Of a DNA stretch of 64,000 nucleotides, positions 35,024 to 63,568 are shown piece by piece (positions within the stretch are counted from its first letter, which is position 1; each line of letters begins with the position of its first letter). The notes below the pieces were generated by a model that had not been told where the DNA came from, did no database searches, and was given only the letters and a program-made list of their open reading frames with translations. Position numbers and translations under genes: made by a program. Location: assembly GCF_003991155.1 (NCBI RefSeq), contig NZ_CP031294.1, one strand, 5' to 3'. The stretch comes from Escherichia coli (GTDB lineage Bacteria; Pseudomonadota; Gammaproteobacteria; Enterobacterales; Enterobacteriaceae).

Positions 35024-35059
35024 TAAAAGGCGGTGCATTGCACCGCCTAATCAGTTCTC

Positions 35060-36151: not shown

Positions 36152-37710
36152 ATGAAAATGACAAGTATTCAACAACGTGCAGAGCTTCATCGCCAGATCT
36201 GGCAAATTGCTAACGATGTCAGGGGTTCAGTCGATGGATGGGATTTTAAGCAGTACGTTTTGGGCGCGCTTTTTTACCGTTTTATCAGCGAAAATTTTTC
36301 CAGTTATATTGAAGCCGGTGATGACAGTATCTGTTATGCGAAACTGGATGACAGCGTAATTACTGATGACATTAAAGACGATGCCATCAAAACTAAAGGC
36401 TACTTCATCTACCCCAGTCAGCTTTTCTGCAACGTAGCTGCGAAAGCAAATACTAATGACAGACTGAATGCAGATTTAAACAGCATCTTCGTTGCTATCG
36501 AAAGTTCTGCTTACGGTTATCCTTCAGAAGCTGACATCAAAGGTTTGTTTGCTGATTTCGATACCACCAGTAACCGCCTGGGTAACACCGTTAAAGATAA
36601 AAATGCCCGCTTGGCTGCGGTTCTGAAAGGGGTTGAAGGGCTAAAACTTGGTGACTTCCATGAACATCAGATTGACCTGTTCGGTGACGCCTATGAGTTC
36701 CTGATTTCTAACTATGCGGCGAATGCCGGTAAGTCCGGCGGCGAGTTCTTTACACCGCAGCACGTCTCTAAGCTGATTGCACAACTGGCTATGCACGGGC
36801 AGACCCACGTTAACAAAATCTACGACCCGGCAGCAGGCTCCGGTTCGCTGTTGTTGCAGGCGAAAAAACAGTTTGATGACCATATCATCGAAGAAGGTTT
36901 TTTTGGTCAGGAAATCAACCATACGACCTATAACCTGGCGCGTATGAACATGTTTTTGCACAACATCAACTACGACAAGTTTGATATCAAGCTGGGTAAT
37001 ACACTGACTGAGCCGCACTTCAGAGATGAAAAACCGTTTGATGCCATCGTTTCTAACCCGCCGTATTCGGTGAAATGGATTGGCAGCGATGACCCGACGC
37101 TGATTAACGATGAACGTTTTGCCCCGGCTGGCGTTCTGGCCCCCAAATCCAAAGCTGACTTTGCGTTTGTATTACATGCGCTGAACTATCTTTCGGCCAA
37201 AGGTCGCGCTGCGATTGTCTGCTTCCCAGGCATTTTTTACCGTGGCGGCGCGGAGCAGAAAATCCGTCAGTATCTGGTCGACAATAACTATGTCGAAACC
37301 GTGATTTCACTGGCACCGAATCTGTTCTTTGGCACCACTATTGCCGTCAATATTCTGGTGCTGTCTAAACATAAAACGGATACCAAAGTTCAGTTTATTG
37401 ATGCCAGCGAACTGTTCAAAAAAGAGACTAACAACAACATTCTGACCGATGCTCATATCGAACAGATTATGCAGGTATTTGCCAGCAAGGAAGATGTTGC
37501 TCATCTGGCGAAATCTGTTGCGTTTGAGACTGTTGTCGCGAATGACTATAACCTGTCGGTGAGCAGCTATGTGGAAGCGAAAGATACTCGCGAAATTATC
37601 GATATCGCTGAGCTGAATGCTGAGCTGAAAACCACGGTCAGCAAAATCGACCAGTTGCGTAAAGATATTGATGCGATTGTTGCTGAGATTGAAGGTAGCG
37701 AGGTACAGGC

Positions 37711-37714
<4 letters not shown>
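36152..37714 (+). CDS. hsdM: Type I restriction-modification methyltransferase subunit (Type IC, EcoR124 family)
   Basis: 520 aa; N-terminus [26 protein letters not shown] recalled as EcoR124-family HsdM; AdoMet motif [10 protein letters not shown]; NPPY catalytic motif. Confidence 0.95.
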
Positions 37715-38970
<1,256 letters not shown>

Positions 38971-39091
38971 TTGACCATTGCTACCGACCGGATCACCTTA
39001 ACATCCGGTCTATATAGAGACTATTTTTTACACGCCGGAAGTCGCCCTTAAAGCCCTTCCGGCCCTTGCCAGACGGCACAAAGGATGCGCT

Positions 39092-42000
39092 ATGACTCAT
39101 CAGACACACACCATTGCTGAATCCAATAACTTTATCGTTCTTGATAAGTACATCAAAGCCGAGCAAACAGGCGACAGCTACCAGAGCGAATCGGACCTGG
39201 AACGTGAACTGATTCAGGATCTGCGGAATCAGGGCTATGAATTTATTTCCGTAAAATCTCAGTCGGCGATGCTGGCCAACGTTCGGGAACAGCTTCAGAG
39301 CCTCAATGGTGTGATGTTTAATGACAGCGAGTGGCGGCGCTTCACGGAGCAGTATCTGGACAACCCCAGCGATGGTATTCTGGATAAAACCCGTAAAATC
39401 CATATCGACTATATCTGCGACTTTATTTTTGACGACGGGCGACTTGAGAACATCTATTTGATAGATAAAAAGAATCTCATGCGCAATAAGGTGCAGATTA
39501 TCCAGCAGTTTGAACAGACGGGTTCTCATGCTAACCGTTATGACGTCACGATCCTGGTTAATGGTTTACCGCTGGTGCAAATCGAACTAAAAAAACGCGG
39601 GGTGGCGATTCGTGAGGCTTTCAACCAGATACATCGTTACAGTAAAGAGAGTTTTAACAGCGAAAATTCCCTGTTTAAGTATCTGCAACTGTTTGTCATT
39701 TCTAACGGCACCGATACCCGTTATTTTGCCAACACGACAAAGCGCGATAAAAACAGTTTTGACTTCACCATGAATTGGGCGAAATCAGACAACACGCTGA
39801 TTAAAGACCTCAAAGACTTTACCGCTACCTTTTTCCAGAAACATACTCTGCTGAATGTTCTGGTGAACTACAGCGTTTTTGACAGTAGTCAGACGCTACT
39901 GGTGATGCGACCGTACCAGATTGCCGCCACCGAGCGCATTCTGTGGAAAATTAAGAGTTCCTTTACAGCGAAGAACTGGTCAAAACCGGAAAGCGGTGGG
40001 TATATCTGGCATACTACCGGTTCTGGTAAAACCCTCACCAGCTTTAAAGCCGCGCGTCTGGCAACAGAGCTGGACTTTATTGATAAAGTCTTCTTTGTGG
40101 TCGACAGGAAAGACCTCGATTACCAGACCATGAAGGAATATCAGCGTTTTTCGCCAGACAGCGTCAACGGCTCGGAAAATACCGCAGGCCTTAAACGAAA
40201 TCTGGATAAGGACGATAACAAAATTATCGTCACTACTATTCAGAAACTCAATAACCTGATGAAAGCAGAAAGCGACCTGCCTGTATATAATCAGCAAGTG
40301 GTGTTTATATTTGATGAATGCCACCGCAGCCAGTTTGGAGAAGCGCAGAAAAACCTGAAGAAGAAATTCAAACGCTATTATCAGTTTGGTTTTACCGGCA
40401 CCCCTATTTTCCCGGAAAACGCTTTAGGCTCAGAAACGACCGCCAGCGTATTTGGTCGTGAATTGCATTCGTATGTAATTACCGATGCGATTCGTGATGA
40501 AAAAGTGCTCAAATTCAAGGTGGACTACAACGATGTGCGGCCACAGTTTAAATCTTTAGAGACAGAAACCGACGAGAAAAAACTGAGTGCGGCTGAAAAT
40601 CAGCAGGCATTTCTTCATCCCATGCGTATACAGGAAATTACGCAATATATTCTGAATAACTTCCGCCAGAAGACCCACCGTACTTTCCCAGGTTCCAAAG
40701 GCTTTAATGCCATGCTGGCAGTGAGTAGCGTGGATGCCGCGAAAGCCTATTACGCGACGTTTAAACGGTTACAAGAGGAAGCAGCTAATAAATCGGCTAC
40801 CTATAAACCGCTGCGTGTTGCAACAATCTTCTCCTTTGCCGCCAATGAAGAACAAAATGCCATTGGTGAAATTTCCGATGAAACTTTTGATACCAGCGCA
40901 ATGGACAGCAGTGCTAAAGAGTTTCTTGACGCTGCAATTCGTGAGTATAACAGCTATTTTAAAACTAACTTCAGCACCGACAGTAACGGTTTTCAGAACT
41001 ACTATCGTGATTTAGCCCAACGGGTTAAAAATCAGGATATCGATCTGTTAATTGTCGTTGGGATGTTTTTAACCGGCTTCGACGCTCCAACATTGAACAC
41101 GCTATTCGTCGATAAAAACTTGCGTTTTCACGGCCTGATGCAGGCATTCTCCCGTACCAACCGCATTTATGACGCTACTAAAACCTTCGGTAACATCGTC
41201 ACTTTTCGGGATCTGGAACGCTCAACCATTGATGCCATAACGCTGTTTGGTGATAAAAATACTAAAAATGTGGTGTTAGAAAAGAGTTATGCTGAGTATA
41301 TGGAAGGCTTTACAGATGCTGCCACTGGTGAAGCTAAACGCGGCTTTATGGCAGTAGTTTCAGAACTGGAACAACGGTTCCCTGACCCTGCCAGTATTGA
41401 AAGTGAAAAACAGAAGAAAGACTTCGTAAAACTGTTTGGTGAATACCTGCGTGCCGAGAACATCCTGCAAAACTATGATGAATTTGCCACGCTGAAAGCC
41501 CTGCAACAAATCGATCTTAGCGATCCTGTTGCGGTAGAAAAATTCAAAGCAGAACATTATGTGGATGATGAAAAGTTCGCTGAATTGCAAACAATTCGTC
41601 TCCCTGCTGAACGCAAGATTCAGGATTATCGTTCTGCCTATAACGATATTCGCGACTGGCAGCGCCGTGAGAAAGAAGCTGAGAAAAAAGAGAAATCAAC
41701 CACTGACTGGGATGACGTAGTTTTTGAGGTCGATTTGCTGAAGTCTCAGGAAATAAACCTGGATTATATCCTTGGACTGATTTTCGAACACAACAGACAA
41801 AATAAAGGCAAGGGCGAAATGATCGAAGAGGTCAAACGCTTAATTCGTTCAAGCCTGGGGAACCGGGCGAAAGAGGGCCTGGTGGTCGATTTTATTCAGC
41901 AAACGAACCTGGATGATTTACCAGACAAAGCCAGTATCATTGAGGCATTCTTTACGTTTGCTCAACGCGAACAGCAACGTGAAGCAGAAGCATTGATAAA

Positions 42001-42208
42001 AGAAGAAAATCTCAATGAAGAGGCGGCGAAACGCTATATTCGCACGTCTTTAAAACGCGAATACGCCACCGAAAATGGCACAGAATTAAACGAGACATTA
42101 CCAAAACTTAGTCCGTTAAACCCGCAATATAAAACGAAAAAACAGACCGTTTTCCAGAAAATCGTCACGTTTATTGAAAAGTTCAAAGGAGTAGGTGGGC
42201 AGATATAG
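39092..42208 (+). CDS. hsdR: Type I R-M restriction endonuclease/translocase subunit
   Basis: 1038 aa, same length as EcoR124I HsdR; SF2 helicase motifs (GSGKT, FDECH), N-terminal nuclease region. Confidence 0.95.
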
Positions 42209-46037: not shown

Positions 46038-46682
46038 TTACCACTTGTTATAAACAAAACCAATATCTTTCTTGTGAGGCATATCTGCTGCTGAAAAAGC
46101 TGCGATCTTCGCGAGTCGATCACATATTTCATTTTCACGATGCCCGGCGTGACCTTTAACCCACTTCCAGCGAACATTATGTCGACTTGCGGCCTCATCC
46201 AGACGTTTCCACAGATCAACATTCTTTACCGGTTTTTTATCAGAAGTCATCCATCCATTACGTTTCCACCATTTCATCCACTGTGTCATGCCGTTTTTCA
46301 GATACTGGCTATCAGAGTACAAAATAACGTTGCATGGATATTTCAAACGCTCCAGCCCGATAAGTGCGCCCATCATCTCCATGCGGTTATTGGTGGTGCT
46401 ATGAAAACCATCTGAGAACTCGCGTTCCTCACCACGATACTGGAGAACGATACCGTAACCGCCCGGGCCACCCGGATTTTTAAGGCAAGAGCCATCACTA
46501 AAGATTTTCACGGTTTTGAGCTGGGGATTGAACTCTACGACAGGCGTTGTGGGATTGGTGCGGGGAGAATTTTTGTTTTTGGCTTTTTTGCGAGTTTTTG
46601 CTTGCGATCGGGCTGGTGTCTTCGTCGTCATATAAACTCCTGAATCAAGCGCCGCGCCGATTTTTTCCTCGCGCGTGCGCAC
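46038..46682 (-). CDS. rnhA: ribonuclease H (RNase HI family)
   Basis: C-terminal region [12 protein letters not shown]...[16 protein letters not shown]...[26 protein letters not shown]...[16 protein letters not shown] matches RNase HI; basic N-terminal extension. Confidence 0.85.
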
Positions 46683-47214
46683 ACGCGTGCGTGTTAATAA
46701 TTATTAAAATAAACAAATTACTTCCCAGAACAGGTTTTTTATAAACCTGAACTGAACGAACGAAGTGAGTGAAGTTCACCTCGAACGAAGTGAGAGGTTG
46801 TCTTTTCAGGTAATACTCTCCCAGGGAGGTGAGTATAAAATTCCTCACCAACCTGGTCGTTTCATAACCTGAAAAGCTATGGTCTAAGTCTACTGCCAGC
46901 TTAGACTTGGGAAGTTATGGATGACAGCACCCCAGAACCGAGATCTTCCCACACTTTATGAAGGGGAGTACTGGATTCAACCTCTCGAAACACCCCAGAC
47001 TCGACAATCATAAAGTGACCCTTGTCTCTGCTCACTTTGGTTCCCCCTTCCCCGACACCTAAACGGCACCGGTTCTACGCTGGTAGTGAGCTTTTTTAAA
47101 CCTGACGCCAGTGACGCTTACCCCCACCCATCAGGTCGAGTCTCCAGTCTACGACTGGAAACTATCAGATCTTAGCACTTACAATTCACTTTATGAATAG
47201 TTTGTACTTATCTA

Positions 47215-47469
47215 TCATTTCGATTGATTATTTTTTCGACCATGTAGTTGAACATTCAAGGCAAACACCTCGTTGATCAACTCACCTAAAAGCTGTTCAA
47301 CAAGTTCGCGATGCTCCCCAAGATGCAAGCACTTAATTGCCCATTCGTACAAGTTGAAAGCCTGCTCACGATCTTTCATCATTTCACGAGCCTGGGCCAG
47401 AAAATCGCTCTCTACGAGCGCAACGACATTAGTCGGATATGACATGTTGGTTTCCTTAAAGTGGTTCAT
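47215..47469 (-). CDS. small hypothetical protein
   Basis: 84-aa ORF downstream of hairpin element copy 2. Confidence 0.4.
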   Translation of the reverse strand: MNHFKETNMSYPTNVVALVESDFLAQAREMMKDREQAFNLYEWAIKCLHLGEHRELVEQLLGELINEVFALNVQLHGRKNNQSK

Positions 47470-47550
47470 AAAATCGATTTTAAAGCGTCTGGGAAGGGGT
47501 TCTAGTGGATTCTGTAGTGGTGTTCAGGTCTGGGAGTCTCTGATATAAAA

Positions 47551-47610
47551 CAGCCTGCTTCCGTATATTAATAATTAATATGTAGTTATTTATATATACA
47601 GAAGCAGGCT
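47551..47610. promoter_or_regulatory. hairpin-flanked AT-rich intergenic element (copy 2)
   Basis: agcctgcttccgtatat ... atatatacagaagcaggct; near-identical to 17257-17316. Confidence 0.5.
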
Positions 47611-47631
47611 AATTACAGACGCCAGAACAAA

Positions 47632-48225
47632 CTAAGCAGCCTTCTTTGATGGTCTTTTTTTCCTGATCACATTCGCAGGATCATACCCTCCCAGACTTTT
47701 CATGACGTCCAAAGGGATCTTGCTTATAGAGTGCCCAGCGTCCTGACAGAATCCTCGAAAAACAACGAGCATACTGCCACCGGGGTTGATGTTTACTTCT
47801 ACCTGACCCAAATTGACGTCAGGCTCGACAAACGCTACGCGGCCACCAGACAGAATAATCGTCTCATTCGCACACTCTGTTGCACGCTCATACCACTTTG
47901 TATCGAGGGATTGAGGAATTAGCATCACTGTTGTAACTCCGCGAGCCTGCTCACGTATAGCCGCATCAATCCAGGGGGAGATTTTGGAGTAGGGTGGATT
48001 GAGGAAGGCAATTGTACCTGGCTGTCCCCATTCAGATTTCAAAGCATCACGCTCAACGCCTATGAAATTAGGCAGCTTCGCATTGTCCTTGTTGCAGGCA
48101 ACGTCAACATCAAATGTCACTCCAAGATAACGTTGAATGGCAGAAAACAGCCAGTCAGGTGTTCTCCAGAGGTCACGAAGAGAGTTGTCGCGCTTTCGCT
48201 GTTTGATTTTTTCGGCTGCAATCAT
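47632..48225 (-). CDS. DNA N6-adenine methyltransferase (phage Dam-like, orphan)
   Basis: NPPY catalytic motif (AFLNPPYSKISPWIDAA); 197 aa; no adjacent restriction gene. Confidence 0.7.
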   Translation of the reverse strand: MIAAEKIKQRKRDNSLRDLWRTPDWLFSAIQRYLGVTFDVDVACNKDNAKLPNFIGVERDALKSEWGQPGTIAFLNPPYSKISPWIDAAIREQARGVTTVMLIPQSLDTKWYERATECANETIILSGGRVAFVEPDVNLGQVEVNINPGGSMLVVFRGFCQDAGHSISKIPLDVMKSLGGYDPANVIRKKRPSKKAA

Positions 48226-48408
48226 CTTCTTTCTCGATAGGTAAGTGATTACCTATTTTTGCATTTGATTTTATGTCTGACAATCAAATAAAACGCGCCA
48301 GAAATGCAAACGAGAAGCTCTCTGGCGCGTTTTTGTGGTGCTGGATATGTGATTGGCTTACCCAGCACTATAAAGCTCTCTATGGGCTTTATTTTCAGTA
48401 GGGGGACG

Positions 48409-49218
48409 TCATCCAATAGTGTACTCCGCTACAAACTTCTTAACGATCGGTGATTCTTCGTTCAATGTTAGATTTCCACCGTCTCTAACGGCAATTCCTG
48501 TCGCTGGAAATACAGCCATCATTTGCCCAGCCTGAGTTGACGCAGTGTTAAGCGGATACGGTTTTTCTGGATTGCTCATTAAAGCAATCTTAATACTATT
48601 ACTTGTAGCCTTCTTTTCTGTGAGAAGGTGTCTCATGGAAATTACCGTGTAAACACTAATATCTGGACCTCCGCTAAACCAATTAAGAAGGTTTAATATC
48701 TTATCCTTTGCTTTGACAGGCGCGTTTTCGTAAGCGTCTAAGAAAATATCTGTTTCTAAGCCTGCTTTATTGAAAAACGAATCATCTTTATCACTTAAAG
48801 TAAAACGAGGACCTCTTGCAGTACGCGCTTTTTTATTTGTGTTGCTATCATTTGACTGTTGAACTTTTAATTCATCATTAACATCAACACACTCTTCAAC
48901 CTCAATCAATCCCAATTGTTCTGGCTCGTTTTCGGCAGATTCAACACTTTCAGCGTTAATTACGTTTATAGGCTCATGCGCTAACTCCAACTCATTTAAA
49001 GCAGAGCTGAAATCACCTGCTTTTTCTTCATTGAACAGTTCTTCGGCAACATCATCAGAACTCATGGCTACGCCAGCATCGAGGCCGAGCAGCAGATCGT
49101 CAATATCATCAGTATTTTCAACCTGTGCGGCTTTTTTTACTGGCTCATCAAGTGATTGCAACATGGCTGTCAGCTCGTCCAGATCATCATTTGCCATTAC
49201 ATTTTCAACCGAACTCAT
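48409..49218 (-). CDS. hypothetical protein with highly acidic N-terminal half
   Basis: 269-aa ORF; Asp/Glu-rich first ~110 residues. Confidence 0.4.
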   Translation of the reverse strand: MSSVENVMANDDLDELTAMLQSLDEPVKKAAQVENTDDIDDLLLGLDAGVAMSSDDVAEELFNEEKAGDFSSALNELELAHEPINVINAESVESAENEPEQLGLIEVEECVDVNDELKVQQSNDSNTNKKARTARGPRFTLSDKDDSFFNKAGLETDIFLDAYENAPVKAKDKILNLLNWFSGGPDISVYTVISMRHLLTEKKATSNSIKIALMSNPEKPYPLNTASTQAGQMMAVFPATGIAVRDGGNLTLNEESPIVKKFVAEYTIG

Positions 49219-49378
49219 GTAAGTCTCCTTCTGCTTGGTTACATTTGCGTTTCGATAGCTACATTTTGACTAAACCTATCAGGCGGAAAAGTATTAAATA
49301 CAGGCAGGAAATGATTGAAAGGCGGCTGTTCTTTAAAAGAAAGCCTGCTTTAAACTCTCTTTAAAGCAGGCTTTTGTT

Positions 49379-49933
49379 TTACACAATTTCAGAGGGTAAT
49401 TTAAAAAGTCCGTACTTATTACGTGCCTTAAAGAAGCATTGCATCATTAAGTTTGTGTCATATAAGGCACTATGTGCTTTAGTATGATCGTACATAAAGC
49501 CAAGAGAGAAGGCCAACTCTTCAAGGCGGGGACGTTTACCGTCTTCTGTGGCCCACAGGGAAAATAGAGTGTCAATCAATGGGATGTCTGGAAGCGAAAA
49601 ACCGTAACTTTTCAGCTCATGCCTAATAAACGGAATATCGAACGCTTCGCCGTTGTGGGCTATCCAAATATCGGAAGAAGAGAGATACGAAGCGACAGAT
49701 GAAGCGTGATCGGCTAGTAACGGCTCGGCGGCTAAATCTTCAAGACTGATGCCGTGTACCGCTTGCGCTTTCGGATCGATACTGCGACGCGGGTTGAACC
49801 GCATTACAAAACTATCAACCATTGTCTGTGTCTCCAGTTCATAGCGGGTAATTGCGATTTCAATAATTTTATGACCAGCAAGGAAATCCAGTCCCGTAGA
49901 CTCGATATCGATGCCTGCAACAATCGTTGTCAT
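49379..49933 (-). CDS. DnaQ-like 3'-5' exonuclease (DEDD family)
   Basis: Exo I GIDIESTG, Exo II AHNGEAFD, Exo III HSALYD. Confidence 0.8.
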   Translation of the reverse strand: MTTIVAGIDIESTGLDFLAGHKIIEIAITRYELETQTMVDSFVMRFNPRRSIDPKAQAVHGISLEDLAAEPLLADHASSVASYLSSSDIWIAHNGEAFDIPFIRHELKSYGFSLPDIPLIDTLFSLWATEDGKRPRLEELAFSLGFMYDHTKAHSALYDTNLMMQCFFKARNKYGLFKLPSEIV

Positions 49934-49942
49934 CAGAACTCC

Positions 49943-50362
49943 TTACAACTTCTTAGCGCCCTTAAGTAGTGCGCTACGTACAAATTGAGCCGCTTTTTTC
50001 AAAGTTTCTTCACTGGTTTCACAGACAATCGGATCTTTCCACTTACCTGACGCAGTGTTGAGAATATTGATTTGGTTGCTATCCAGACAAACAGAGATAT
50101 AAAGCACCGTGCCACCAGCCAGCATCAAATGCATAGGAAACAGAGGCTTTTTACTGTCTTCACTGAACTGAGACATGGCGATGTTAATGGCTTCACCTAC
50201 TTGTGCGCCAACAAGCCCCTGCGCAGTTTCGAATATGGCACGAATAGCCAGACGAGCCTCTCGATCGGTCATAAGCGACCGGGAATGTTCGTCCGCTACA
50301 CGAATCAAAGCCTCTGTTGTTTTCCGATCCAGTTCATCTTCAAGCAACATTTCACTAAACAT
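49943..50362 (-). CDS. hypothetical protein
   Basis: 139-aa ORF in replication/nucleotide-metabolism operon. Confidence 0.4.
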   Translation of the reverse strand: MFSEMLLEDELDRKTTEALIRVADEHSRSLMTDREARLAIRAIFETAQGLVGAQVGEAINIAMSQFSEDSKKPLFPMHLMLAGGTVLYISVCLDSNQINILNTASGKWKDPIVCETSEETLKKAAQFVRSALLKGAKKL

Positions 50363-50423
50363 TTTTTATCCTTAACCCATTTTGAGAGTTTTATTGTCGC
50401 AATGTCGAAGAGGCGAACAATTT

Positions 50424-51068
50424 CTAATGAACGGTCACTCGGCCACAGAACCGGTTTTCTATCTTTTCTACAGCGTTATCTAGCATTCTCATCACTGATC
50501 TGGCTCTTGCTTCAACCGTGCGATATCGGTTGGAAACGACGAAGGTTTGCAGATCTCCCCTTTGCGGATGCAGGTGAATTTTTGTCAGTTCCCCGCACAT
50601 CAACGCATCAATACGAGCGACATACAGACGGTCTAATGATGCTCGTTGTGATCGCAAGTAATCTCGCTCTGAGAGAGCGACTCCCGGGCGTAAGCCAGCA
50701 ATGGCGTTAAAGTTTGAAATAGCAGTTTTGTGGCAAAACTTTTCGATATCGAGGGCTAACTCAATACACCGATCTTCATTTGTATGGCCGACCAAATCCA
50801 ACGTGTAGGCCATAACATCAGCAGGTGTGCGATCGATAACAAAGCCTTCAACACCACGCGTAAGTAGCTCTATATGCTTTGCTATTTCCATTTGAATCTG
50901 AAGCCGCTCATATAGAGGCATAGACTCACCTACTCGAACACCGAGGCGGCTCATCAAACTTCCGACACCAGCATCCACGTAAGGGATTCCGTAATGTTTG
51001 TCGATATATTTAGCCAGGGTTGTTTTCCCACTGCCCTGAGCACCAGTGATCCCAATCCGGTAATCCAT
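50424..51068 (-). CDS. deoxynucleoside monophosphate kinase (P-loop)
   Basis: Walker A GAQGSGKTT; FVIDRTP motif; coupled to DHFR gene. Confidence 0.65.
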   Translation of the reverse strand: MDYRIGITGAQGSGKTTLAKYIDKHYGIPYVDAGVGSLMSRLGVRVGESMPLYERLQIQMEIAKHIELLTRGVEGFVIDRTPADVMAYTLDLVGHTNEDRCIELALDIEKFCHKTAISNFNAIAGLRPGVALSERDYLRSQRASLDRLYVARIDALMCGELTKIHLHPQRGDLQTFVVSNRYRTVEARARSVMRMLDNAVEKIENRFCGRVTVH

Positions 51069-51544
51069 TACGACCTTCTGTATACGATCTGCGAAAAGCC
51101 AGGCTCTTCCTCGCTGGCTCGTTGGGTATAAGCTGTTTCAACAGGCACAAAGCCTAAGTTACGCATCATGCTTGCCGGGAAGAATGCATCGGCGTTTGGT
51201 ACATCAACGCCGATGTGGGAGAGCCAAATCTCTTCAACATGCGGCATGAATAGCGAGTAAATTTGTTCCCCGCCAATCACCCACACAGGCTCTGGTAATC
51301 GCAACACATCATCCACACCAGCAGGGTAGAATCCATTTGGTACAAAGCCATGAGAGCGCGTCAAAACGAGGTTATGACGCTCTGGAAGAGGGCGTTTGAG
51401 ACTTTCCATCGTTTTACGCCCCATAACGACAGTGGCGTTTTTGGTGAGTCTCTTAAATAGCTTCAGATCGGTAGAACAACGCCAGGGGAGTTCATTCGCT
51501 ATGCCGATCTCATAGTTACGGCCAACAGCAGCGATCATCTTCAT
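51068..51544 (-). CDS. dihydrofolate reductase
   Basis: 158 aa; MIAAVGRNYEIGIANELPW, VVMGRKT motifs characteristic of DHFR. Confidence 0.85.
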   Translation of the reverse strand: MKMIAAVGRNYEIGIANELPWRCSTDLKLFKRLTKNATVVMGRKTMESLKRPLPERHNLVLTRSHGFVPNGFYPAGVDDVLRLPEPVWVIGGEQIYSLFMPHVEEIWLSHIGVDVPNADAFFPASMMRNLGFVPVETAYTQRASEEEPGFSQIVYRRS

Positions 51545-51954
51545 TTGCTCACCTCATAGATGACCGGTCGATGGTGAGAGTCGGCTAAAGCGGCACGGAG
51601 TCGAGGATCGTGCACCAGCGCAGCGATAAGCAGATCGCCTTTATGCTCCGCTAATGTGCGCTTAATATGCTTCTCATAACTGGTGCCATTCGGTACGAGA
51701 TGAAGCCAGTCATAATCAACGCCAAAATCTTTCAGCCATCGTTTAGTTGGCGCTTCAAGAGTTTCAGAGCGGCTACTGATAAGCACCACTTCAGCCCCTG
51801 AGCGAGCAAAACCACGCAACATACGGCTGGTGGGGAAAATGAGTTCATCACCGGCAATGAGCTGGCCTGCATCCGCGTCAGATACTGATTTACGATGGCT
51901 GGCATTTGCCAGCACACCTTCAATTTCGCATAAGACATACATACCTCTTGCCAT
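51541..51954 (-). CDS. hypothetical protein between thyA and DHFR genes
   Basis: Start moved to internal ATG (MARGMYVL) to avoid overlap with thyA. Confidence 0.35.
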   Translation of the reverse strand: MARGMYVLCEIEGVLANASHRKSVSDADAGQLIAGDELIFPTSRMLRGFARSGAEVVLISSRSETLEAPTKRWLKDFGVDYDWLHLVPNGTSYEKHIKRTLAEHKGDLLIAALVHDPRLRAALADSHHRPVIYEVSK

Positions 51955-51955
51955 A

Positions 51956-53059
51956 TCACACCGCCACTGGAACCTTGATCCACGGTAGAGGGTCATAGCC
52001 AAGAATTAAAACCTCGTCCCATTTGAAATCATCCAACTCTGACCATTCATGAGGGAAAATAACGACCGGATCTGAATGCTCTGGAGCCTGTCGTTTCATT
52101 AGCTCACACACACCTTCCATGTGGTTGTTGTACAAATGCACGTCAAAGCCAAAATGCACAAATGCACCGGCCATGTGACCCGTAATCTTCGCGAGAAAAT
52201 GAGTGAGAATGCCATAGCCAGCAATATTGAATGGCATACCAACAAAAGTGTCTACGCTACGCTGTACGAGGCAGGAGTTGAGGATGCGTTTGGGGATTCC
52301 AAGTTCATCCAGTTCAGCTTCAGTAACACTGCCGTCCATATCCAGATCGTATAGCATCTTGGTGTAGATAGACTCGTAACCGAGGCGACTGTGTTGAAGA
52401 CCAATGTCAGTTGCCATCGTTAAACGGGTTTCAAAATCCAGCTCACGACTCCACAAAGAGAAGACAAAGTGGCAAGGTGGCAGTTTCATATCCTCAAGCT
52501 CGCCTACGTTCCATGCGTTAAGCATGATGCGACGATCGGTAGGGTTCGTGCGCAGTGTATCGACAATACGCTGTAGCTGATCGATTTCACGGGACAGCAC
52601 TACGCGATCTTCACTGATACCCAGGTATCCCTCGACTTTGTACCCGCGTTCACGGAAAGTAGCGATCTTGCTCAGATATTCACTATGGCTCACGATGCGG
52701 GTATCTTCCCATCGACGCCACTGCTTACCGTAAACCGGCCCCAAATCGCCATTCTCATCGGCCCATGCATCCCAAATCTTAACGCCGTTATCCTTGAGAA
52801 ATTGGATGTTGCCCGTGCCTTTCAGATACCACTCAAGTTCGACAAGTAGTGGCTTAAGATTTACCGCCTTTCCAGAAATAAGCGGCACAGTCCCACCAGT
52901 AAGCATGTAGTAAGAGGGAACGTAGCAGGTGCTTAAAGTACCAGTGCCTGTGCGATCATCAGCCTGCACGCCGCTTTTAAGCACCGTCTCAATAACTTTT
53001 GCATACGATGCGTTTGTTACCTGACCGTTCGTATGCTCTCGATTCAAAAGGAGTGACAC
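51956..53059 (-). CDS. thyA: thymidylate synthase (ThyA family) with two insertions
   Basis: DRTGTGT, IWDAWADENGDLGPVYGKQWR, catalytic PPCH, PFNIAGY motifs; GTG start; 367 aa vs ~264 aa for E. coli ThyA. Confidence 0.9.
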   Translation of the reverse strand: MSLLLNREHTNGQVTNASYAKVIETVLKSGVQADDRTGTGTLSTCYVPSYYMLTGGTVPLISGKAVNLKPLLVELEWYLKGTGNIQFLKDNGVKIWDAWADENGDLGPVYGKQWRRWEDTRIVSHSEYLSKIATFRERGYKVEGYLGISEDRVVLSREIDQLQRIVDTLRTNPTDRRIMLNAWNVGELEDMKLPPCHFVFSLWSRELDFETRLTMATDIGLQHSRLGYESIYTKMLYDLDMDGSVTEAELDELGIPKRILNSCLVQRSVDTFVGMPFNIAGYGILTHFLAKITGHMAGAFVHFGFDVHLYNNHMEGVCELMKRQAPEHSDPVVIFPHEWSELDDFKWDEVLILGYDPLPWIKVPVAV

Positions 53060-53229
53060 AAAAACCTCACAAAGATAAGTAATTACTTATTCATCGTGTG
53101 AGTTTACATTCATTGAGAGAACAAGACCAGACAGATAAAAAAATGGTGGCCATAGGCCACCAAAACGAATAGTCATTCCAGAGTTTTATTACGCATGTTA
53201 AATATACACAGATAGATAACTACCTACAA

Positions 53230-54099
53230 TTATTTTTTGATCATTCCGTACATTGCTGAGGCTTTAGCTTGCTCAACAAAGGAGGATAAATCGACATCAC
53301 TATAGGTTGGAGACTTCAGAATCTTTCCATCGGAAATTCGAAAACCGATCATCTTATCGGTGCCATCAGCATGGCGGAATCCCAGATCTGAAGAGTCGTA
53401 TTTGCAGTTGGCCACAGCCTGGCGACGTTCCTCAACATCAGCAGGCCATAATTTTGTCATGTTAGACCGATGAATTTCGCCAACCAGCTCGACGACATTG
53501 ATACCGAGGAAATCAGCCAGTCGATAAGTCATCATGCACGCCACATAGATTTTGTTCATTACACGGCGCAGTTCCTGAATCAGCTCAGAATCCTTAACAG
53601 TCTTCTTCTCAAGTTTATCTGCCAGCTCTTCGAGCATACATGACGCCTCACGAGCTTCCTGAAATGGCATTGCCATATCATCGAAAACAGTGTTACCGGG
53701 CACAAAAATTGTCTGCATAAAGCGATCAATGCTCTGTTCCTGCGTGTAATAGGTCATGCCGGTAGAAATACCACCTTTGATGGCGACCATCGTACCAACA
53801 CCAACGTATAAAAAGTCGGCCATTGCATCCAGCAGTTGCTCAATATCCCCATTCATTGCGGCTGGAATACCTTCCACTACAGCTTCTTCATGAATCAGGC
53901 TTGCACGGAGACGAAGCAGCTCTGGTGTCGGCATAACGCGTCTCGGATGCTGGAAGAGTTCATGAAACTGATCGACCATCTTGTAAATACTTTCAGTGGC
54001 TACACCATGGCCTTCATGCAACTCATATGGTTCTGGCTTAAATCCAATGAGTCGATCGGTGGCAAGTTTCAGGTGGTCAGTCAGTTTGGTAAAGTTCAT
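53230..54099 (-). CDS. MazG-like nucleotide pyrophosphohydrolase domain protein (candidate)
   Basis: EExxE...DxxD pattern (LIHEEAVVEG...DIEQLLDAMAD); start moved to ATG 54097-54099 with AAGGA RBS. Confidence 0.4.
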   Translation of the reverse strand: MNFTKLTDHLKLATDRLIGFKPEPYELHEGHGVATESIYKMVDQFHELFQHPRRVMPTPELLRLRASLIHEEAVVEGIPAAMNGDIEQLLDAMADFLYVGVGTMVAIKGGISTGMTYYTQEQSIDRFMQTIFVPGNTVFDDMAMPFQEAREASCMLEELADKLEKKTVKDSELIQELRRVMNKIYVACMMTYRLADFLGINVVELVGEIHRSNMTKLWPADVEERRQAVANCKYDSSDLGFRHADGTDKMIGFRISDGKILKSPTYSDVDLSSFVEQAKASAMYGMIKK

Positions 54100-54176
54100 G
54101 CTAGTTTTGTTCCTTCTTAATTCTTGTGATCCATTGTGGCCCAGCGTTGCCAGGCCACATAATGCTTTGTATCGGT

Positions 54177-55319
54177 TTACAGGTCTGCAAACTGGCTTAG
54201 AGAAGCCTTGTCCACGGTAGAATCGATCTGACCTACCAGATATGTGCTTTGCTCTGCCTCTTGTGGTGCAATTTGCAGTGTGTCGGTTAACAACCACTTG
54301 TTCATCCAGACCAGCGGATCAGTGGTAACTTCTGGAAATAAAGCCTTCAGGCCAAGACGATTCATAGCCAGATTGGTTCGGTATTTTACATAGGTCTTCA
54401 GAATATCCGCGTTTAAACCAATCATCGAACCGTCTTTGAAGAGATAGTCTGCCCAGTTCATTTCTTGTTCGGCGACTGATTTCATGGTGTCGTAAATGAC
54501 GTTTTCTTCATCAGCAGCAATCTCTTTCCACAATAAACCTTCGCGACCGGTACGCATGAAGCGGATCATGCGTTCAGTTCCTTCGCAATGCAGAGCTTCA
54601 TCACGGGCAATAAAGCGCATAATTTTGGTGTTACCCTCAAGCAACTTCCGTTCGCCAAAGGCAAACGTACATGCAAAACTTACATAGAAACGGATCGCCT
54701 CAAGCGCATTAATGGACACTAACGTGCGGAAAAGCTGACGGTGCAAAGGATATGGCTCCCAGCCATATTCATTTACGTACAGACGCTCAAATTCCTTCTC
54801 GCCTAACGACTGGCGATCGCAGGTCATCCCATAAAGCCTGTCATATTCAGCAGAGATACTGATGGCTCGGTTGATGATTTCTTCATCCGTAACAATACCG
54901 TCAAAAACAATACTCGGATCGTCCACCATGCCACGAATAATGTGGGTGTAGCTGCGGCTATGGATAGTCTCAGAGAAAGACCACGTTTCAACCCACGTTT
55001 CCAGTTCAGGAATAGAGATAAGCGGCAGCAGAGTTGCGTTTGGGCTACGTCCCTGAACTGAATCGAGCAACGTTTGATAACGGAGATTACTCAGGAAAAT
55101 GTGGCGTTCGTGGTCCCGCAGCTTCGTATTGAAGTCGATGCGATCGCTCGAAATATCAACTTCTTCCGGCCGCCAGAAGAAAGACAATTGACGTTCAATC
55201 AACTTTTCAAAATCACGGTATTTTTGTTGATCGTAACGAGCCACGTTGACAGATTGTCCGAGGAACATAGGCTCTTTGGTTGCATCATTAGCACCCAAAC
55301 GGAACGTTGAATATGACAT
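54177..55319 (-). CDS. nrdB: ribonucleotide reductase class Ia beta subunit
   Basis: 380 aa, strongly similar to E. coli NrdB ([20 protein letters not shown]..., C-terminal YLVGQIDS). Confidence 0.95.
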
Positions 55320-55425
55320 GTGTTTTTCCTTTTTCTTTTTTGGTGCGTTTAAACAGGTTGTTATCTTATGTGTTTAAACAAGGCTTACAAATCAAAGAGA
55401 AGGTGGGGATATCCCCCACCATATG

Positions 55426-57741
55426 TCAGATTTTGCAGGCTCCGTCGCACTCATCTTCTGGCTCGACGGCTACAGCTTGCGTCAGTGGATTCTGCGGTTC
55501 GTCGTCATCACGCTTTCCTGCCCCATCTCTGGTGTTGTGGTAGTAAAGCGTTTTAACTCCCATCTTGTAGGCGAGAAGCAAATCTGACAGTAGCGTCATC
55601 ATTGGGACTTTATCGCCTTCAAAGCGAGAAGGGTCATAGTTGGTATTGGCTGAAATAGCCTGGTCAAAGAACTTCTGGATGATCGCCACCTTTGTCAGAT
55701 AGCCGCGGTTGTCCGGCATATCCCACAGGTATTCATACTGTTCCTTCAGTTTTTCAAACTCAGGCACGACCATCTTAACGATGCCGTCCTTAGAAGATTT
55801 CACCGACACCGGTCCACGAGGCGGTTCGATGCCGTTGGTGGAATTAGTGATCTGGCTGGAAGTCTCGCATGGCATTTGTGCCGTCAGTGTGGAGTTGCGA
55901 AGGCCGTATTTTGCAATACGTTCACGCAGTTCTTCCCACGGCATCTTTAACTCAAAGTTGGTTTCGCCACTTTCGTCTAATGAAGAACGGTAATGGTCGA
56001 TCGGCAACTGACCAATTGCGTACTTGGTCTGCTCAAACCAGTCACACTCACCTTTTGCTTCAGCAAGTCGGCAGCTGGCATCAAGAAGGTAATACTGGAT
56101 AGCTTCGAACGTTTCATGCACCAGTTTATTGCCAGCGGTATCAGAATAACGAACGCCATTCTTTGCCAGGTAATAAGCAAAGTTGGTTACACCAATTCCC
56201 AAGCTACGACGAGCTTTGGCAGGCACTTCGGCTGCCTCCATCGGATAGTCTTGATAATCCAGTAACGAATCCAGTGCAGCAACGGCATAGAACGCCACCT
56301 CTTTAAGAGACTCCAGTGAACGGATGGCTCCGAGGTTAAAAGCGGATAAAGTGCATAGCGCGATCTCACCGTTCGGGTCGTCGGTAAATGCCAGTGGACG
56401 AGTGGGTAGAGTGATCTCCATGCACAGGTTTGACTGGCGAACAGGTGCAAGAGCAGGAATGAAAGCGCCATGCTCGTTAATATGATCGACGTTCGCAATA
56501 TAAATTCGGCCCGTGGACGCTCGTTCCTGCATCAGAGATGAGAACAGCTCAATGGCAGGTACTGACTTCTTGCGAATTGAATCATCGGCTTCGTATTTAT
56601 GGTACAGCTTTTCAAACAGATCCTGGTCTGTGAAGAAGGCTTCGTACATATCAGGCACATCATGCGGGCTGAACAGAGTGATGTTCTCGCTTCTGACGAG
56701 TCGACGGTACATTAGACGGTTACTCATGACGCCGTAATCAAGATGGCGAACGCGGTTTTCATCAATACCACGGTTATTTTTCACCACCAGCAGACTTTCA
56801 ACTTCAAGATGCCAGATCGGGTAAAACGCTGTTGCTGCGCCACCACGAACACCACCTTGCGAGCAAGATTTAACAGCAGTCTGGAAATGCTTCAGGAATG
56901 GAATAACTCCGGTATGGGTGGCTTCACCATTGCGGATCTCACTGCCCAGCGCACGGATACGGCCAAAACCAATACCAATTCCAGCACGACGTGAAACGTA
57001 GTCGATAATTGCGGCTGAAGCTGCACTAATCCCTTTCAGACTATCGCCAGACTCAATCAGCACACAACTGGAGAACTGACGGGTTGGAGTACGGACGCCG
57101 GCCATGATTGGTGTGGGCAGAGACAGTTTGAACGTACTTGTAACGTCATAGAAACCTTTGACCATCTCCATACGTGTTTTGCCCGCGCAGTCGTCTTCCC
57201 AATTCTGGAACAGACACATGCCCACCAGCATATAGATATGTTGCGGGCCTTCGTGAATCTCACCAGTAACACGGTTTTGAACGAGGTATTTGCTTTGCAA
57301 CTGCACCGTAGCTGCATAGCCAAAAAGATCGTCACGTTTAGGCTTAATGTAATTGCCGAGTTCTTCGATCTCTTCAAATGAATAATGTGTCAGCAAATCC
57401 TTGTCATAAACGCCCTTGTTAACGTTCTTGACAATGTGTTGGTAGAAGTTCGGATAGTCGTAACGACCGAAGGCATCTTTGCGGATTTTAAAAATGTTCA
57501 GGCGGGCAGCCACCTGCGAGTAATTTGGTGCATCTGGTGAGATCAAATCAGCGGCAGATTTAACCAAAGCCTCATGCAACTGGCTGGTGGTAATCCCATC
57601 AAAAATGCTGGCCGCAGCTCCCATTGCTACAGCGGATGCGCTTACACCTCGAATGCCTTCTACGCCATACATTACGACGCGGTTGTATTTTTCTTCGGAT
57701 AACGGCTCTGTTTGGCCGTTACGTTTTACGATGCTTATCAT
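55426..57741 (-). CDS. nrdA: ribonucleotide reductase class Ia alpha subunit
   Basis: 771 aa, ATP-cone N-terminus, SLPTPIMAGVRTPTRQFSSCVLIE, NLCMEI, C-terminal CxxxxC tail. Confidence 0.95.
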   Translation of the reverse strand: MISIVKRNGQTEPLSEEKYNRVVMYGVEGIRGVSASAVAMGAAASIFDGITTSQLHEALVKSAADLISPDAPNYSQVAARLNIFKIRKDAFGRYDYPNFYQHIVKNVNKGVYDKDLLTHYSFEEIEELGNYIKPKRDDLFGYAATVQLQSKYLVQNRVTGEIHEGPQHIYMLVGMCLFQNWEDDCAGKTRMEMVKGFYDVTSTFKLSLPTPIMAGVRTPTRQFSSCVLIESGDSLKGISAASAAIIDYVSRRAGIGIGFGRIRALGSEIRNGEATHTGVIPFLKHFQTAVKSCSQGGVRGGAATAFYPIWHLEVESLLVVKNNRGIDENRVRHLDYGVMSNRLMYRRLVRSENITLFSPHDVPDMYEAFFTDQDLFEKLYHKYEADDSIRKKSVPAIELFSSLMQERASTGRIYIANVDHINEHGAFIPALAPVRQSNLCMEITLPTRPLAFTDDPNGEIALCTLSAFNLGAIRSLESLKEVAFYAVAALDSLLDYQDYPMEAAEVPAKARRSLGIGVTNFAYYLAKNGVRYSDTAGNKLVHETFEAIQYYLLDASCRLAEAKGECDWFEQTKYAIGQLPIDHYRSSLDESGETNFELKMPWEELRERIAKYGLRNSTLTAQMPCETSSQITNSTNGIEPPRGPVSVKSSKDGIVKMVVPEFEKLKEQYEYLWDMPDNRGYLTKVAIIQKFFDQAISANTNYDPSRFEGDKVPMMTLLSDLLLAYKMGVKTLYYHNTRDGAGKRDDDEPQNPLTQAVAVEPEDECDGACKI

Positions 57742-57756
57742 GTATCACCAAATAAA

Positions 57757-57782
57757 GAGGGCCACTATATTTAGTGGCCCAT
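57757..57782 (-). terminator. hairpin terminator candidate between resolvase-like gene and nrdA
   Basis: gggccacta-aatat-agtggccc followed by T-rich run on minus strand. Confidence 0.45.
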
Positions 57783-57814
57783 GTTAATAGATAAGCACTT
57801 ACCTATCAATGAGA

Positions 57815-58384
57815 TCAAATGAGAGACTTGAGAACATCGCGCACCTGGCGAAACTGATCTGTTTGCATACCGGTATGGATGGCAGCCACCGCATCAGCCA
57901 AATGTTCGTTTTTGTTCACGAGAACATCCTGTCCAGATTGCTTACGACGCAGCCACGGTGCTTTAGGGTGTTTTTTCGTAGCCCACTGGATAATCTCTTC
58001 TTTCGATGTAGTAAGTTTATTGCCAACAAAATGCTTGATTTCGTTTGGAGTGACCTGGATCAATGGCTTATCCACACACGCAAGTACACCGATACAAATA
58101 CCGTAAGACGTCTGCGAACGAGAGTTTTGGCTTCCAACCGGTAGTTCACAAAAAACCATATTCGCCTTATCAATGATTGGCTTCGCAACACGCCATATTT
58201 CACTGGCACGGCGCAGATCGTCACTGTTCACACGAACGGTCTTTTTGTTACTCCCCGCTTTAGTCTCAACAAGAGTAAGGCCGTGAATCTCAAGTTCGTC
58301 CGTTTCAAGGTCTAAAGTGCCCACAGCAAGCCCAAAGTTGCTCATAGAGGGATCAACACCAACTACGCTGATTTTTTTACTCAT
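57815..58384 (-). CDS. RuvC-like Holliday junction resolvase (candidate)
   Basis: N-terminal VVGVDPS and downstream acidic residues in RuvC-like spacing; 189 aa. Confidence 0.5.
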   Translation of the reverse strand: MSKKISVVGVDPSMSNFGLAVGTLDLETDELEIHGLTLVETKAGSNKKTVRVNSDDLRRASEIWRVAKPIIDKANMVFCELPVGSQNSRSQTSYGICIGVLACVDKPLIQVTPNEIKHFVGNKLTTSKEEIIQWATKKHPKAPWLRRKQSGQDVLVNKNEHLADAVAAIHTGMQTDQFRQVRDVLKSLI

Positions 58385-58393
58385 ATAGTCTCC

Positions 58394-59137
58394 TTACCAT
58401 GTTCCCCATAGAGGGTTTTCCAATAATCTCGCCTCCAACGAATTGGTTACTATTGCCGTTTGCAACGTTGGTTGGGGATAGTTTGCAAAGTCTGAATACT
58501 CATTTTCCTGCGTGACACGTTTATCTACGGCATGTTTAACGCCACTTGCTATGAAATGACGCATGATGCCCAACAGCCTCCGACTGTCTGCACTATCGTT
58601 TGCTAAAACATGAGGGAGCTGAAGTTCGATTTCTACCATTTCTCCATACTTACCAACAAACTGTAGTTTGTCCGCACTGTACTTTTTATCCCTCCTTTGG
58701 ATAAGGAAACCAGTAAAAGCATCACCTGGCGATGCCAAACTATCCACCCGCTTATTGGCAAGTCGAATAAGGTTCGTGAAAGCCATACAGTGATGCGCAC
58801 CCATTCCCCCAAAGAACCCTTCGCTATTAATGTTAAGATCTTCAGTTTCATGGGATGCAATAAATCCAGGCCCGACGTTGGGAAGATATCCCCCCTCAAC
58901 AAAAGGATTAATCAGGATCGGCGCAATACATCCAGGTGGTAGTGATTTCAAACTTTGCATCAATGGTGTCTCGGATATTAGACCAAGCAACGCGGCGAAT
59001 TGTACTCCGTCAATATTGTTGCTGCCCCACAGAATACGTGGAGCCGAACCATTGGAAGTATGCCCATTGATCAGTTTTATCGACTGCATCACTGCAAATA
59101 CCTGCAAAAACTGCGAGCGGCTTAATTTAAACGACAT
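58394..59137 (-). CDS. hypothetical protein
   Basis: 247-aa ORF overlapping SbcC-like gene start by 11 bp. Confidence 0.4.
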   Translation of the reverse strand: MSFKLSRSQFLQVFAVMQSIKLINGHTSNGSAPRILWGSNNIDGVQFAALLGLISETPLMQSLKSLPPGCIAPILINPFVEGGYLPNVGPGFIASHETEDLNINSEGFFGGMGAHHCMAFTNLIRLANKRVDSLASPGDAFTGFLIQRRDKKYSADKLQFVGKYGEMVEIELQLPHVLANDSADSRRLLGIMRHFIASGVKHAVDKRVTQENEYSDFANYPQPTLQTAIVTNSLEARLLENPLWGTW

Positions 59138-61043: not shown

Positions 61044-61272
61044 ATAACACCTCTGATACCGTGTGTTAGCTTTTGGCCTTCTTTCAATCTGAACTCCGTA
61101 TGCGCCGGGAAGGATCTGCGCCTCAATACGCCTTTTCTTGTTAACCTTCCAAGATAAAACGCTACGGGATTTCCTTGTGGCGGGTAGGGCTTGTGAAACA
61201 TCACCGTCTGGCCTCGTTCAAGTCTTTTCATCGTGATGGCAAAGTCTCGAAAGCTCCCATAACGACTTTGCT

Positions 61273-63257: not shown

Positions 63258-63354
63258 AATCGTTTTTTCAGTAGTTATTGGCCGATGCTACGATAACTCA
63301 TTAGGCATACCTTAATCTGCATTTGCCTGTTTTACTTATCCCAGTTATCCACTG

Positions 63355-63430
63355 GATAGATCCAAATAAGAGATCCCAAGTAAGATCAAATAGAAGATCC
63401 AAAGAGATCCCCGATCGCCTCTAGCCGTTG
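63355..63430. promoter_or_regulatory. DnaA-box-like site plus cluster of six GATC sites
   Basis: ttatccact followed by agatcc/agatccc/agatca/agatcc/agatcccc/cgatcg within ~65 bp. Confidence 0.6.
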
Positions 63431-63454
63431 CGGTTACTGGTCTGAAAGGGTGTT

Positions 63455-63568
63455 GCCATCCACTATGGAGAGCAAAGAAACCTCTGTAGAGAGCTGAATA
63501 ACCGCTATGAAGAGTAAAACAACCACTCTGGAGAGCTGTATATATCCACTGTAGAGAGTAGAGCACAT
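63455..63568. repeat. iteron array 1 (five ~22-bp direct repeats, core CCACTNTAGAGAG)
   Basis: atccactatggagag, cctctgtagagag, ccgctatgaagag, ccactctggagag, ccactgtagagag at ~22-bp spacing. Confidence 0.8.

Follow-up and report, generated by a model that had tools for sequence, protein, structure and literature searches.

A stretch of 64,000 nucleotides (hereafter the window) carries a small Dam-like methyltransferase gene as well as a plasmid origin dense in GATC sites, and our analysis suggests that the two serve different purposes. We favour, with moderate confidence, a reading in which the enzyme is a top-up GATC methylase of the lytic phase that acts on virion DNA, while the GATCs of the origin are served by the Dam of the host. 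Methylase and origin are both real and belong to well-described kinds. The gene is already annotated publicly, since records of hundreds of plasmids label it 'phage N-6-adenine-methyltransferase'. A literature search found no paper on the methylase of the SSU5 group or on the GATC cluster of its origin.

The window is 98–99.8% identical to Cyrano (pLF82), an SSU5-like phage-plasmid of E. coli, with values of 98.6% in the methylase region and 99.8% in the origin region. For the Salmonella phage SSU5, the identity is approximately 76–80% in both regions. The window is part of a phage-plasmid of the SSU5/pHCM2/Cyrano type, a well-known kind, and is essentially Cyrano itself. In the adherent-invasive E. 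coli strain LF82, Cyrano is known as plasmid pLF82, which has a size of 108 kb; this SSU5-like siphovirus phage-plasmid has a copy number of about 5.5 per cell and can be induced with ciprofloxacin (PMC9928086). GATC is neither depleted nor enriched in the window overall (284 sites against 256 ± 17 in dinucleotide-preserving shuffles). An Rfam scan of the whole 64 kb returned no match at gathering thresholds. The coordinates of the features discussed below are collected in Table 1.

Table 1. Features of the window, with their positions, strand and the basis on which they were assigned
Feature	Position	Strand	Basis
Complete type I R-M system: hsdM (36152-37714), hsdS (37711-38970), hsdR (39092-42208)	36152..42208	+	Pfam, PADLOC
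DNA/nucleotide-metabolism module containing the methylase: RNase H, DnaQ-like exonuclease, DHFR, PNK, ThyX, MazG, RNR alpha and beta, RuvC, SbcCD	46038..62358	-	Cyrano annotation, Pfam
Orphan PF05869 ('phage Dam', T1-Dam-like) N6-adenine DNA methyltransferase, 197 aa	47632..48225	-	ORF, Pfam, phrog_111, PADLOC
Catalytic motif IV, NPPY: codons of residues 76-79	47989..48000	-	Sequence; alignment
Origin unit 1: tandem DnaA boxes TTATCCCAG and TTATCCACT	63335..63353	+	Aligned with the annotated P1 oriR DnaA site
Origin unit 1: five GATC heptamers (spacings 13, 12, 12, 10 bp) and a sixth GATC (CGATCG) 7 bp on	63359..63416		Homology to P1 Dam sites
Origin unit 1: GC-rich spacer	63417..63457	+	Aligned with the P1 oriR GC-rich stretch
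Origin unit 1: five iterons, consensus WWCCNCTNTRGAGAG, 21-23 bp spacing	63458..63558	+	Repeat analysis
Spacer between the origin-like units, AT-rich (72% A+T) and poorly conserved, with two DnaA-box-like 9-mers	63560..63690		Sequence
Origin unit 2: perfect DnaA box TTATCCACA, heptamer array, GC-rich spacer	63718..63838	+	Diverged tandem copy of unit 1
Origin unit 2: six iterons abutting repA, where P1 has incC and the repA promoter	63839..63959	+	Repeats

The original prediction had read positions 47632–48225 as a gene for a Dam-like N6-adenine methyltransferase with an NPPY motif, and each part of this description held up. The open reading frame lies on the minus strand, starts with ATG and encodes 197 amino acids, with NPPY at residues 76–79 (nt 48000–47989). 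The protein matches the Pfam family PF05869, 'DNA N-6-adenine-methyltransferase (Dam)', with an E-value of 2.5e-38 and 131.8 bits (cutoff 28.1), and covers positions 5–160 of the 169 in the profile. It also matches phrog_111, 'DNA methyltransferase', with an E-value of 1.6e-65. Membership of the D12 class of Dam enzymes (EcoDam, T4 Dam and P1 Dmt, PF02086) is excluded, as PF05869 is the sole Pfam family found at E <= 0.01.

The family motifs DLWRTP, DVDVAC, NPPY, MLIPQ and GGRVAF are all intact in the protein. In an alignment, it is 27–34% identical to the dam products of Stx2 phage 1717, Tls (a T1-like phage), the lactococcal phage PhiL.6 and Aaphi23. The blocks DLWxTP, D-x-D-x-A-(A/C)...NAK, NPPY, V-ML-P...T-W-(F/Y) and GR--F are common to the window protein and these relatives, and the residues D18, T22, D41, N48, N76, P77, P78, P104, G128, R129 and F132 are invariant in the comparison with them. 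In an alignment of eight family sequences, N76, P77 and P78 do not vary.

Neither the window protein nor the family profile, when used as a query, retrieved a PDB chain related by sequence, and the residues by which the methylase recognises its target are therefore not readable. An AF2 model built on the eight-sequence alignment reached a pLDDT of 80 and a pTM of 0.79. Its best Foldseek matches in the PDB (CAPAM, M.TaqI, KsgA, CamA and M.BseCI; E-values from 4e-5 to 1e-3, TMq 0.37–0.58) correspond to generic N6-adenine MTase cores only. The adenine MTases among them, namely CAPAM, M.TaqI, CamA and M.BseCI, have 380–550 residues and are thus two to three times longer than the 197-residue protein of the window, and the KsgA chains, with approximately 235–270 residues, are slightly longer. 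Both the model and the structural matches are consistent with a minimal N6-adenine catalytic core that has no separate target-recognition domain.

The methylase gene is under purifying selection. The dN/dS ratio was taken from two pairs, SSU5 against Klebsiella (0.08) and the window against Moellerella (0.13), dS being saturated in the others. These low values, together with synteny that extends from E. coli to Klebsiella and Moellerella, indicate that the gene is functional. Copies of nearly full length were found in 728 plasmids.

We consider GATC the likely target of the enzyme because its family relatives methylate GATC. The closest relatives with named dam genes come from Stx phages (39% identity), whereas Tls, a T1-like phage, and phages of the 936 group stand at about 30%. 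The Dam proteins of T1, HP1 and VT2 are GATC enzymes, and every characterised member of the PF05869 family known to us is GATC-specific. M.Phi93DAM, which a 936 phage encodes between terS and terL, is a small MTase with the NPPY motif only, and SMRT sequencing as well as DpnI/DpnII digestion demonstrated that it methylates GATC (PMC4190342). The PhiL.6 protein of our alignment is encoded in the same position, between the terminase genes, and is probably the product of the same kind of gene.

It could be argued that the enzyme is relaxed in its specificity or recognises a site other than GATC, and that its sole function is anti-restriction against other R-M systems, unrelated to GATC and to the origin. 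Specificity can shift within MTase families, and the characterised relatives are at most 39% identical to the window protein (27–39% for the GATC enzymes). With no solved structure that sequence would place in the family, recognition residues offer no guidance, and the GATC methylation already provided by the host makes a second enzyme of this specificity look redundant. On the other hand, T1, HP1 and VT2 Dam and M.Phi93DAM all agree on GATC, and the element does not avoid the site, with 284 occurrences where 256 are expected. We regard a departure from GATC as unlikely.

The enzyme had also been described as lacking a restriction partner. This stands for its neighbours: the restriction-enzyme models of Pfam, PHROGs and PADLOC gave no match in the two flanking genes and five further nearby ORFs. 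Nothing in Pfam or PADLOC matches the two flanking ORFs, of 269 aa and 84 aa, whose only PHROGs are of unknown function; the nearby RNase H and DnaQ-like exonuclease ORFs match those enzyme families only. In addition, the best PADLOC models for the methylase itself are those of an 'orphan methyltransferase'. On the neighbours examined, its status as a putative orphan stands. The order of exonuclease, 269-aa protein, methylase and small protein is kept in Klebsiella and Moellerella elements, and in those of Klebsiella RNase H comes next downstream.

For the element as a whole, however, the statement does not hold, as a complete type I R-M system (Table 1) is encoded 5.4 kb from the methylase. 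The Dam-like enzyme and this hsdMSR system are not partners. The cassette stands in place of sequence that is present in Cyrano, and the same arrangement was found in 67 plasmids.

The second half of the original prediction set the gene alongside an origin with six GATC sites. Both features do exist in the window, but they lie 15 kb apart. The six sites were confirmed within 58 bp (63359–63416), with starts at 63359, 63372, 63384, 63396, 63406 and 63413 and hence spacings of 13, 12, 12, 10 and 7. This is the densest GATC cluster of the window and the only significant one: in 5000 uniform random placements of 284 sites, at least six GATCs within 75 bp anywhere occurred in 0.7%. Other groups of three to four GATCs (e.g. 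13699–13795 in the portal gene and 51466–51633) are at chance level, given that at least four GATCs in 75 bp appeared in 69% of the random placements.

Conservation leads to the same view of the cluster. We aligned 11 diverse origins, which include those from Yersinia, Salmonella, Klebsiella, Cronobacter, Pantoea and phage P1. The GATCs of heptamers 1, 3 and 5 are invariant, that of heptamer 2 is lost in P1 only and that of heptamer 4 in Pantoea only; Citrobacter and Pantoea lack the sixth site, CGATCG. Between the sites, the sequence is variable all along. Because the GATCs are conserved among relatives while the spacers vary, the cluster is not a product of chance, and the tetranucleotides themselves are under selective constraint.

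The proposal that this cluster is origin DNA was borne out as well, since it aligns as a homologue of the P1 oriR core. It belongs to the first of two origin units that are arranged in tandem with an offset of 381 bp (63335–63558 and 63718–63959). In the heptamer array of the second unit, three GATCs are left and three have become GAAC/GACC, a state that is conserved in pMT1, pHCM2 and pP59A-2. The repA gene of Cyrano starts at base 64001, that is, at the base after the last position of the window (64000). RepA belongs to the Rep_3 family, and in Cyrano further, incA-like iterons are found 3′ of repA.

The similarity to P1 extends beyond the cluster. RepA is 49% identical to P1 RepA over 267 aa (E 5e-93). 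In the GenBank record of P1, the parts of oriR follow in the order DnaA site, 'Dam methylation sites 1-5', incC iterons, repA and incA, and the window origin has the same order (DnaA boxes, GATC heptamers, GC-rich stretch, iterons, repA and downstream iterons). In the part of unit 1 that extends from TTATCCACTGGATAGATCCAA to AGATCCC(C/T)GATCG and on across the GC-rich stretch, the alignment with P1 oriR holds at nearly every base. The window thus has an origin of the P1 oriR type, directly homologous to that of P1.

This homology has consequences for how the origin is likely to be controlled. P1 oriR reportedly needs methylated DNA, as Abeles and Austin are said to have described in 1987 and Abeles et al. 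again in 1993. Abeles, Brendler and Austin are also said to have found that its GATCs have to be methylated and that a second control, of the sequestration type, acts on it. The hemimethylated core of the P1 origin is a target of SeqA. By analogy with P1, dependence on Dam and SeqA would be expected of the window origin too.

The origin core was found in 928 plasmids. Among them are Y. pestis pMT1, S. Typhi pHCM2 and replicons of Enterobacter, Citrobacter, Klebsiella, Cronobacter and Pantoea. Iterons and Rep family change around the fixed core, for instance in elements of Klebsiella and E. coli that use the RepB family. Because the GATCs remain fixed while spacers, iterons and Rep family change, the core of DnaA boxes and GATCs would be the part of the origin that host factors read.

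To see how the gene behaves in lysogens, one can turn to the published RNA-seq table for LF82, in which the Cyrano methylase is CYRAN_79. Its log2(fpkm+5) values in LB are 2.82 and 2.32 (about 2 and 0 fpkm), which is below the median background of the prophage, and the maximum over ten RNA-seq samples is 4.14. For repA, the same source gives 7.39 and 6.63, i.e. about 163 and 94 fpkm, or about 130 overall. The module genes CYRAN_74-80 and CYRAN_82 are at background in lysogens (6–11 on the fpkm+5 scale, median 9.8). Thus, the methylase is silent in the plasmid state and lies within a repressed nucleotide-metabolism (lytic) module. Its silence in lysogens and its gene neighbourhood point to expression in the lytic phase. 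A scan for promoters and terminators around the methylase gene gave nothing above shuffled expectation.

A small ORF embedded in the metabolism module, CYRAN_81, is highly expressed.

It had been suggested that the enzyme may serve replication control. In such a case, the element's own methylase would methylate the GATCs of the origin and help to control plasmid replication in the prophage state. This idea gains from the nature of the origin, which is of the GATC-methylation-dependent P1 oriR type, and from the fact that the enzyme and the core occur together in about 730 SSU5-like plasmids. The expression data speak against it, as the gene is at 0–2 fpkm in lysogens where repA is at about 130.

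Plasmids that have the core speak against it too. In the first 100 kb of pMT1 (101.6 kb in total), tblastn matched origin-adjacent genes, namely an ASCH-like gene, SbcD, SbcC and RuvC, but gave no homologue for the methylase or for the remaining genes of its module. All six GATCs are nevertheless kept in the pMT1 origin. Since pMT1 retains them without a homologue of the enzyme, the enzyme is not needed for the origin GATCs and is dispensable for keeping the GATC core. Furthermore, the origin core was matched by 63 plasmids from Yersinia and 88 from Pantoea, two genera that do not rank in the top ten of the methylase search by frequency. Finally, enterobacterial hosts encode their own Dam. Taken together, these observations do not sustain the suggested role in replication control; the link between enzyme and origin is weakly supported, and we find methylation of the origin by the element's own enzyme in the prophage state very unlikely.

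A different link could operate in the lytic phase. Lytic methylation would ensure that an incoming oriR is fully methylated, fires at once and escapes SeqA, or else the enzyme would override sequestration during lytic amplification. P1, with its D12-class Dmt, and the window element, with its PF05869 protein, combine homologous GATC origins with two unrelated Dam-type enzymes of their own. This hints at a connection with the origin and suggests convergent acquisition by P1 and the SSU5-like elements. Moreover, SeqA binds GATC arrays cooperatively, and the six GATCs, spaced about one helical turn apart, would suit such binding. However, host Dam would methylate the entering DNA within minutes. 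The PF05869 family is also common in phages without a plasmid stage (T1-like, Stx, Vibrio and lactococcal ones), so that no link to the origin is needed to account for its presence. We judge this role quite unlikely. One can go further and assume that phage-plasmids with P1-type origins acquired Dam-type enzymes convergently, that a lytic burst of GATC methylation licenses the origin of the virion and that unit 2, with its GAAC/GACC sites, is a methylation-independent back-up; we would give this scenario only a slim chance.

In the reading that we prefer, that of a lytic top-up methylase, the enzyme would be made after induction or infection together with the genes for replication and dNTP supply. 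It would act on the GATC adenines of phage DNA that is amplified so fast that host Dam is outpaced. The packaged genomes would thereby be fully methylated, and in the next host the virion DNA would be shielded from methyl-sensitive restriction enzymes that cut GATC. The GATC cluster would be a separate feature, the host-interface core of a plasmid origin of the P1 oriR type. If the homology with P1 is a guide, this origin would need Dam methylation to fire and would be targeted by SeqA when hemimethylated. In the plasmid state, its methylation would come from host Dam and not from the enzyme of the element.

The anti-restriction benefit of the methylase is something we infer. How large a selective benefit it brings is uncertain, because the hosts already methylate GATC and because methyl-sensitive GATC-cutting restriction enzymes are not, to our knowledge, known to be common in Enterobacteria.

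P1 offers one more possible use for such an enzyme. In P1, to which the replicon is most closely related, cleavage at pac is regulated by Dam methylation, and the main job of the window methylase might therefore be to methylate a GATC-rich packaging site for cutting by the terminase, as P1 Dmt does at pac. A C1-repressor operator of dmt is annotated in the P1 record, so that dmt is presumably repressed in lysogens, like the window methylase. Nevertheless, a role of this kind is unlikely, as neither the genes of the putative small (16512–17144) and large (15256–16512) terminase subunits nor their surroundings have a GATC cluster; the region 16512–17600 has only two isolated GATC sites. We hold a pac-like function to be extremely improbable, and return to lytic top-up methylation as the favoured explanation.

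For the most part, these results matter little beyond annotation, since the origin can be recognised as homologous to P1 oriR, the classic Dam-dependent origin. They do make dependence on host Dam and SeqA predictable, as in P1, for replicons of the SSU5/pHCM2/pMT1 type (IncFIB), which are widespread in clinical Enterobacteriaceae. They also point to the DnaA-box/GATC core as a conserved host-interface module that persists through exchanges of Rep and iterons. In two lineages of phage-plasmids, such an origin is accompanied by a Dam-type enzyme that the element itself encodes, and these enzymes are unrelated to each other, which may have a bearing on plasmid establishment.

When set against known systems, the window comes closest to other phage-plasmids of its group. 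In SSU5, pHCM2, pLF82 (Cyrano) and pKpn, the methylase gene and the origin are both present and syntenic with the window. The difference from Cyrano is the extra type I R-M cassette of the window, which truncates a DUF4942 gene found in Cyrano.

With regard to the enzyme, the members of the PF05869 phage Dam family (T1 Dam, HP1 Dam, the Dam of the Stx phages VT2/933W and lactococcal M.Phi93DAM) are likewise small stand-alone N6-adenine MTases with NPPY. They too are orphan and phage-borne and are located among replication or nin-type genes. The window protein differs in that it is only 27–39% identical to these members of the family and in that its gene is carried on a phage-plasmid.

With regard to the origin, the system to compare is P1. 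Five heptamers keep GATC in the window and four in P1, where heptamer 2 reads AGGTCC; with the terminal (C/T)GATCG included, the totals are six and five. The iteron sequence differs between the two, and the window has the entire origin unit twice in tandem, the proximal copy being partly GATC-less. The window-type replicon is typed as IncFIB by PLSDB. P1 Dmt is likewise a self-encoded methylase of the GATC type on a phage-plasmid with a Dam-dependent oriR. It is not homologous to the window protein, however, but a 754-aa fusion of a C5-MTase with a D12-class PF02086 domain, and BLASTP of the window protein against full-length Dmt gave an E-value of 0.11, with similarity only around the (D/N)PPY motif.

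In the window, the entire oriR-like unit upstream of repA is present as a tandem duplicate. In the repA-proximal unit, three heptamer GATCs are changed to GAAC or GACC, and the same state is kept in pMT1, pHCM2 and one E. coli relative. The Citrobacter repA-proximal unit has one GATC more.

A comparison of loci (L008, L009, L010 and L012) revealed that the core of DnaA-box, GATC and GC-rich segments is nearly unaltered in phage-plasmids carrying a different initiator, annotated as "RepB family", whose start lies only ~200 bp from the upstream gene. The core is also retained in a Cronobacter plasmid in which the iterons differ. Because it persists with another initiator as well as with other iterons, the core acts as a module that can be separated from both Rep and the iterons.

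As for the orphan Dam-type methylase (PF05869), we did not find this enzyme in Y. pestis pMT1. That plasmid encodes an unrelated "DNA methylase", and ArdA is encoded in the same block, which resembles a plasmid leading region. We also noted that a 55-bp stretch (47665-47719) at the methylase gene's own 3′ end in the window holds three GATC sites, which is the chance level for the window.

Features of the window and of pMT1 (positions refer to the window unless stated)
Feature	Position	Strand	Remarks
Methionyl-tRNA synthetase	within 31732-35449	-	full-length, 720 aa
Mrp/NUBPL-type P-loop ATPase	33923-35023		
S24 LexA-like peptidase	35060-35449		
Type I R-M cassette (hsdM, hsdS, hsdR)	36152-42208	+	complete
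CYRAN_90 remnant	42267-42677	-	136 aa, 5′ part only; DUF4942; phrog_6263 "DNA methyltransferase"
CYRAN_81	46901-47035	-	44-aa ORF between RNase H and methylase
Origin core	63335-63457		
oriR-like unit 1	63335-63558		
oriR-like unit 2 (repA-proximal)	63718-63959		
pMT1 "DNA methylase"	L024 (pMT1 locus) 17816-18493 = pMT1 67816-68493		225 aa; DPPY and FAGSGST motifs

CYRAN_81 is named after its counterpart in Cyrano, the near-identical phage-plasmid of E. coli LF82, and was described as a moron of unknown function (PMC9928086). According to the published LF82 RNA-seq table, it is among the top-expressed Cyrano genes in lysogens, with ~117 on the fpkm+5 scale in LB and up to log2 10.3 in macrophages. 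It matched no PHROG and nothing in Rfam, and it could be a small RNA instead of a protein.

The cargo at the left of the type I cassette includes the synthetase, the ATPase and the S24 peptidase. In the Cyrano lysogen, the genes of the latter two (the ATPase as "septum site-determining protein") are both expressed, as the same table reports.

The type I R-M cassette itself distinguishes the window from Cyrano, which lacks it. Homology between the two ends at ~42290, within the CYRAN_90 gene; this gene possibly encodes a second orphan methylase in SSU5-like elements. Since the break falls inside this gene and leaves only a 5′ remnant, we conclude that CYRAN_90 was truncated by the cassette. The same arrangement is found in 67 plasmids.
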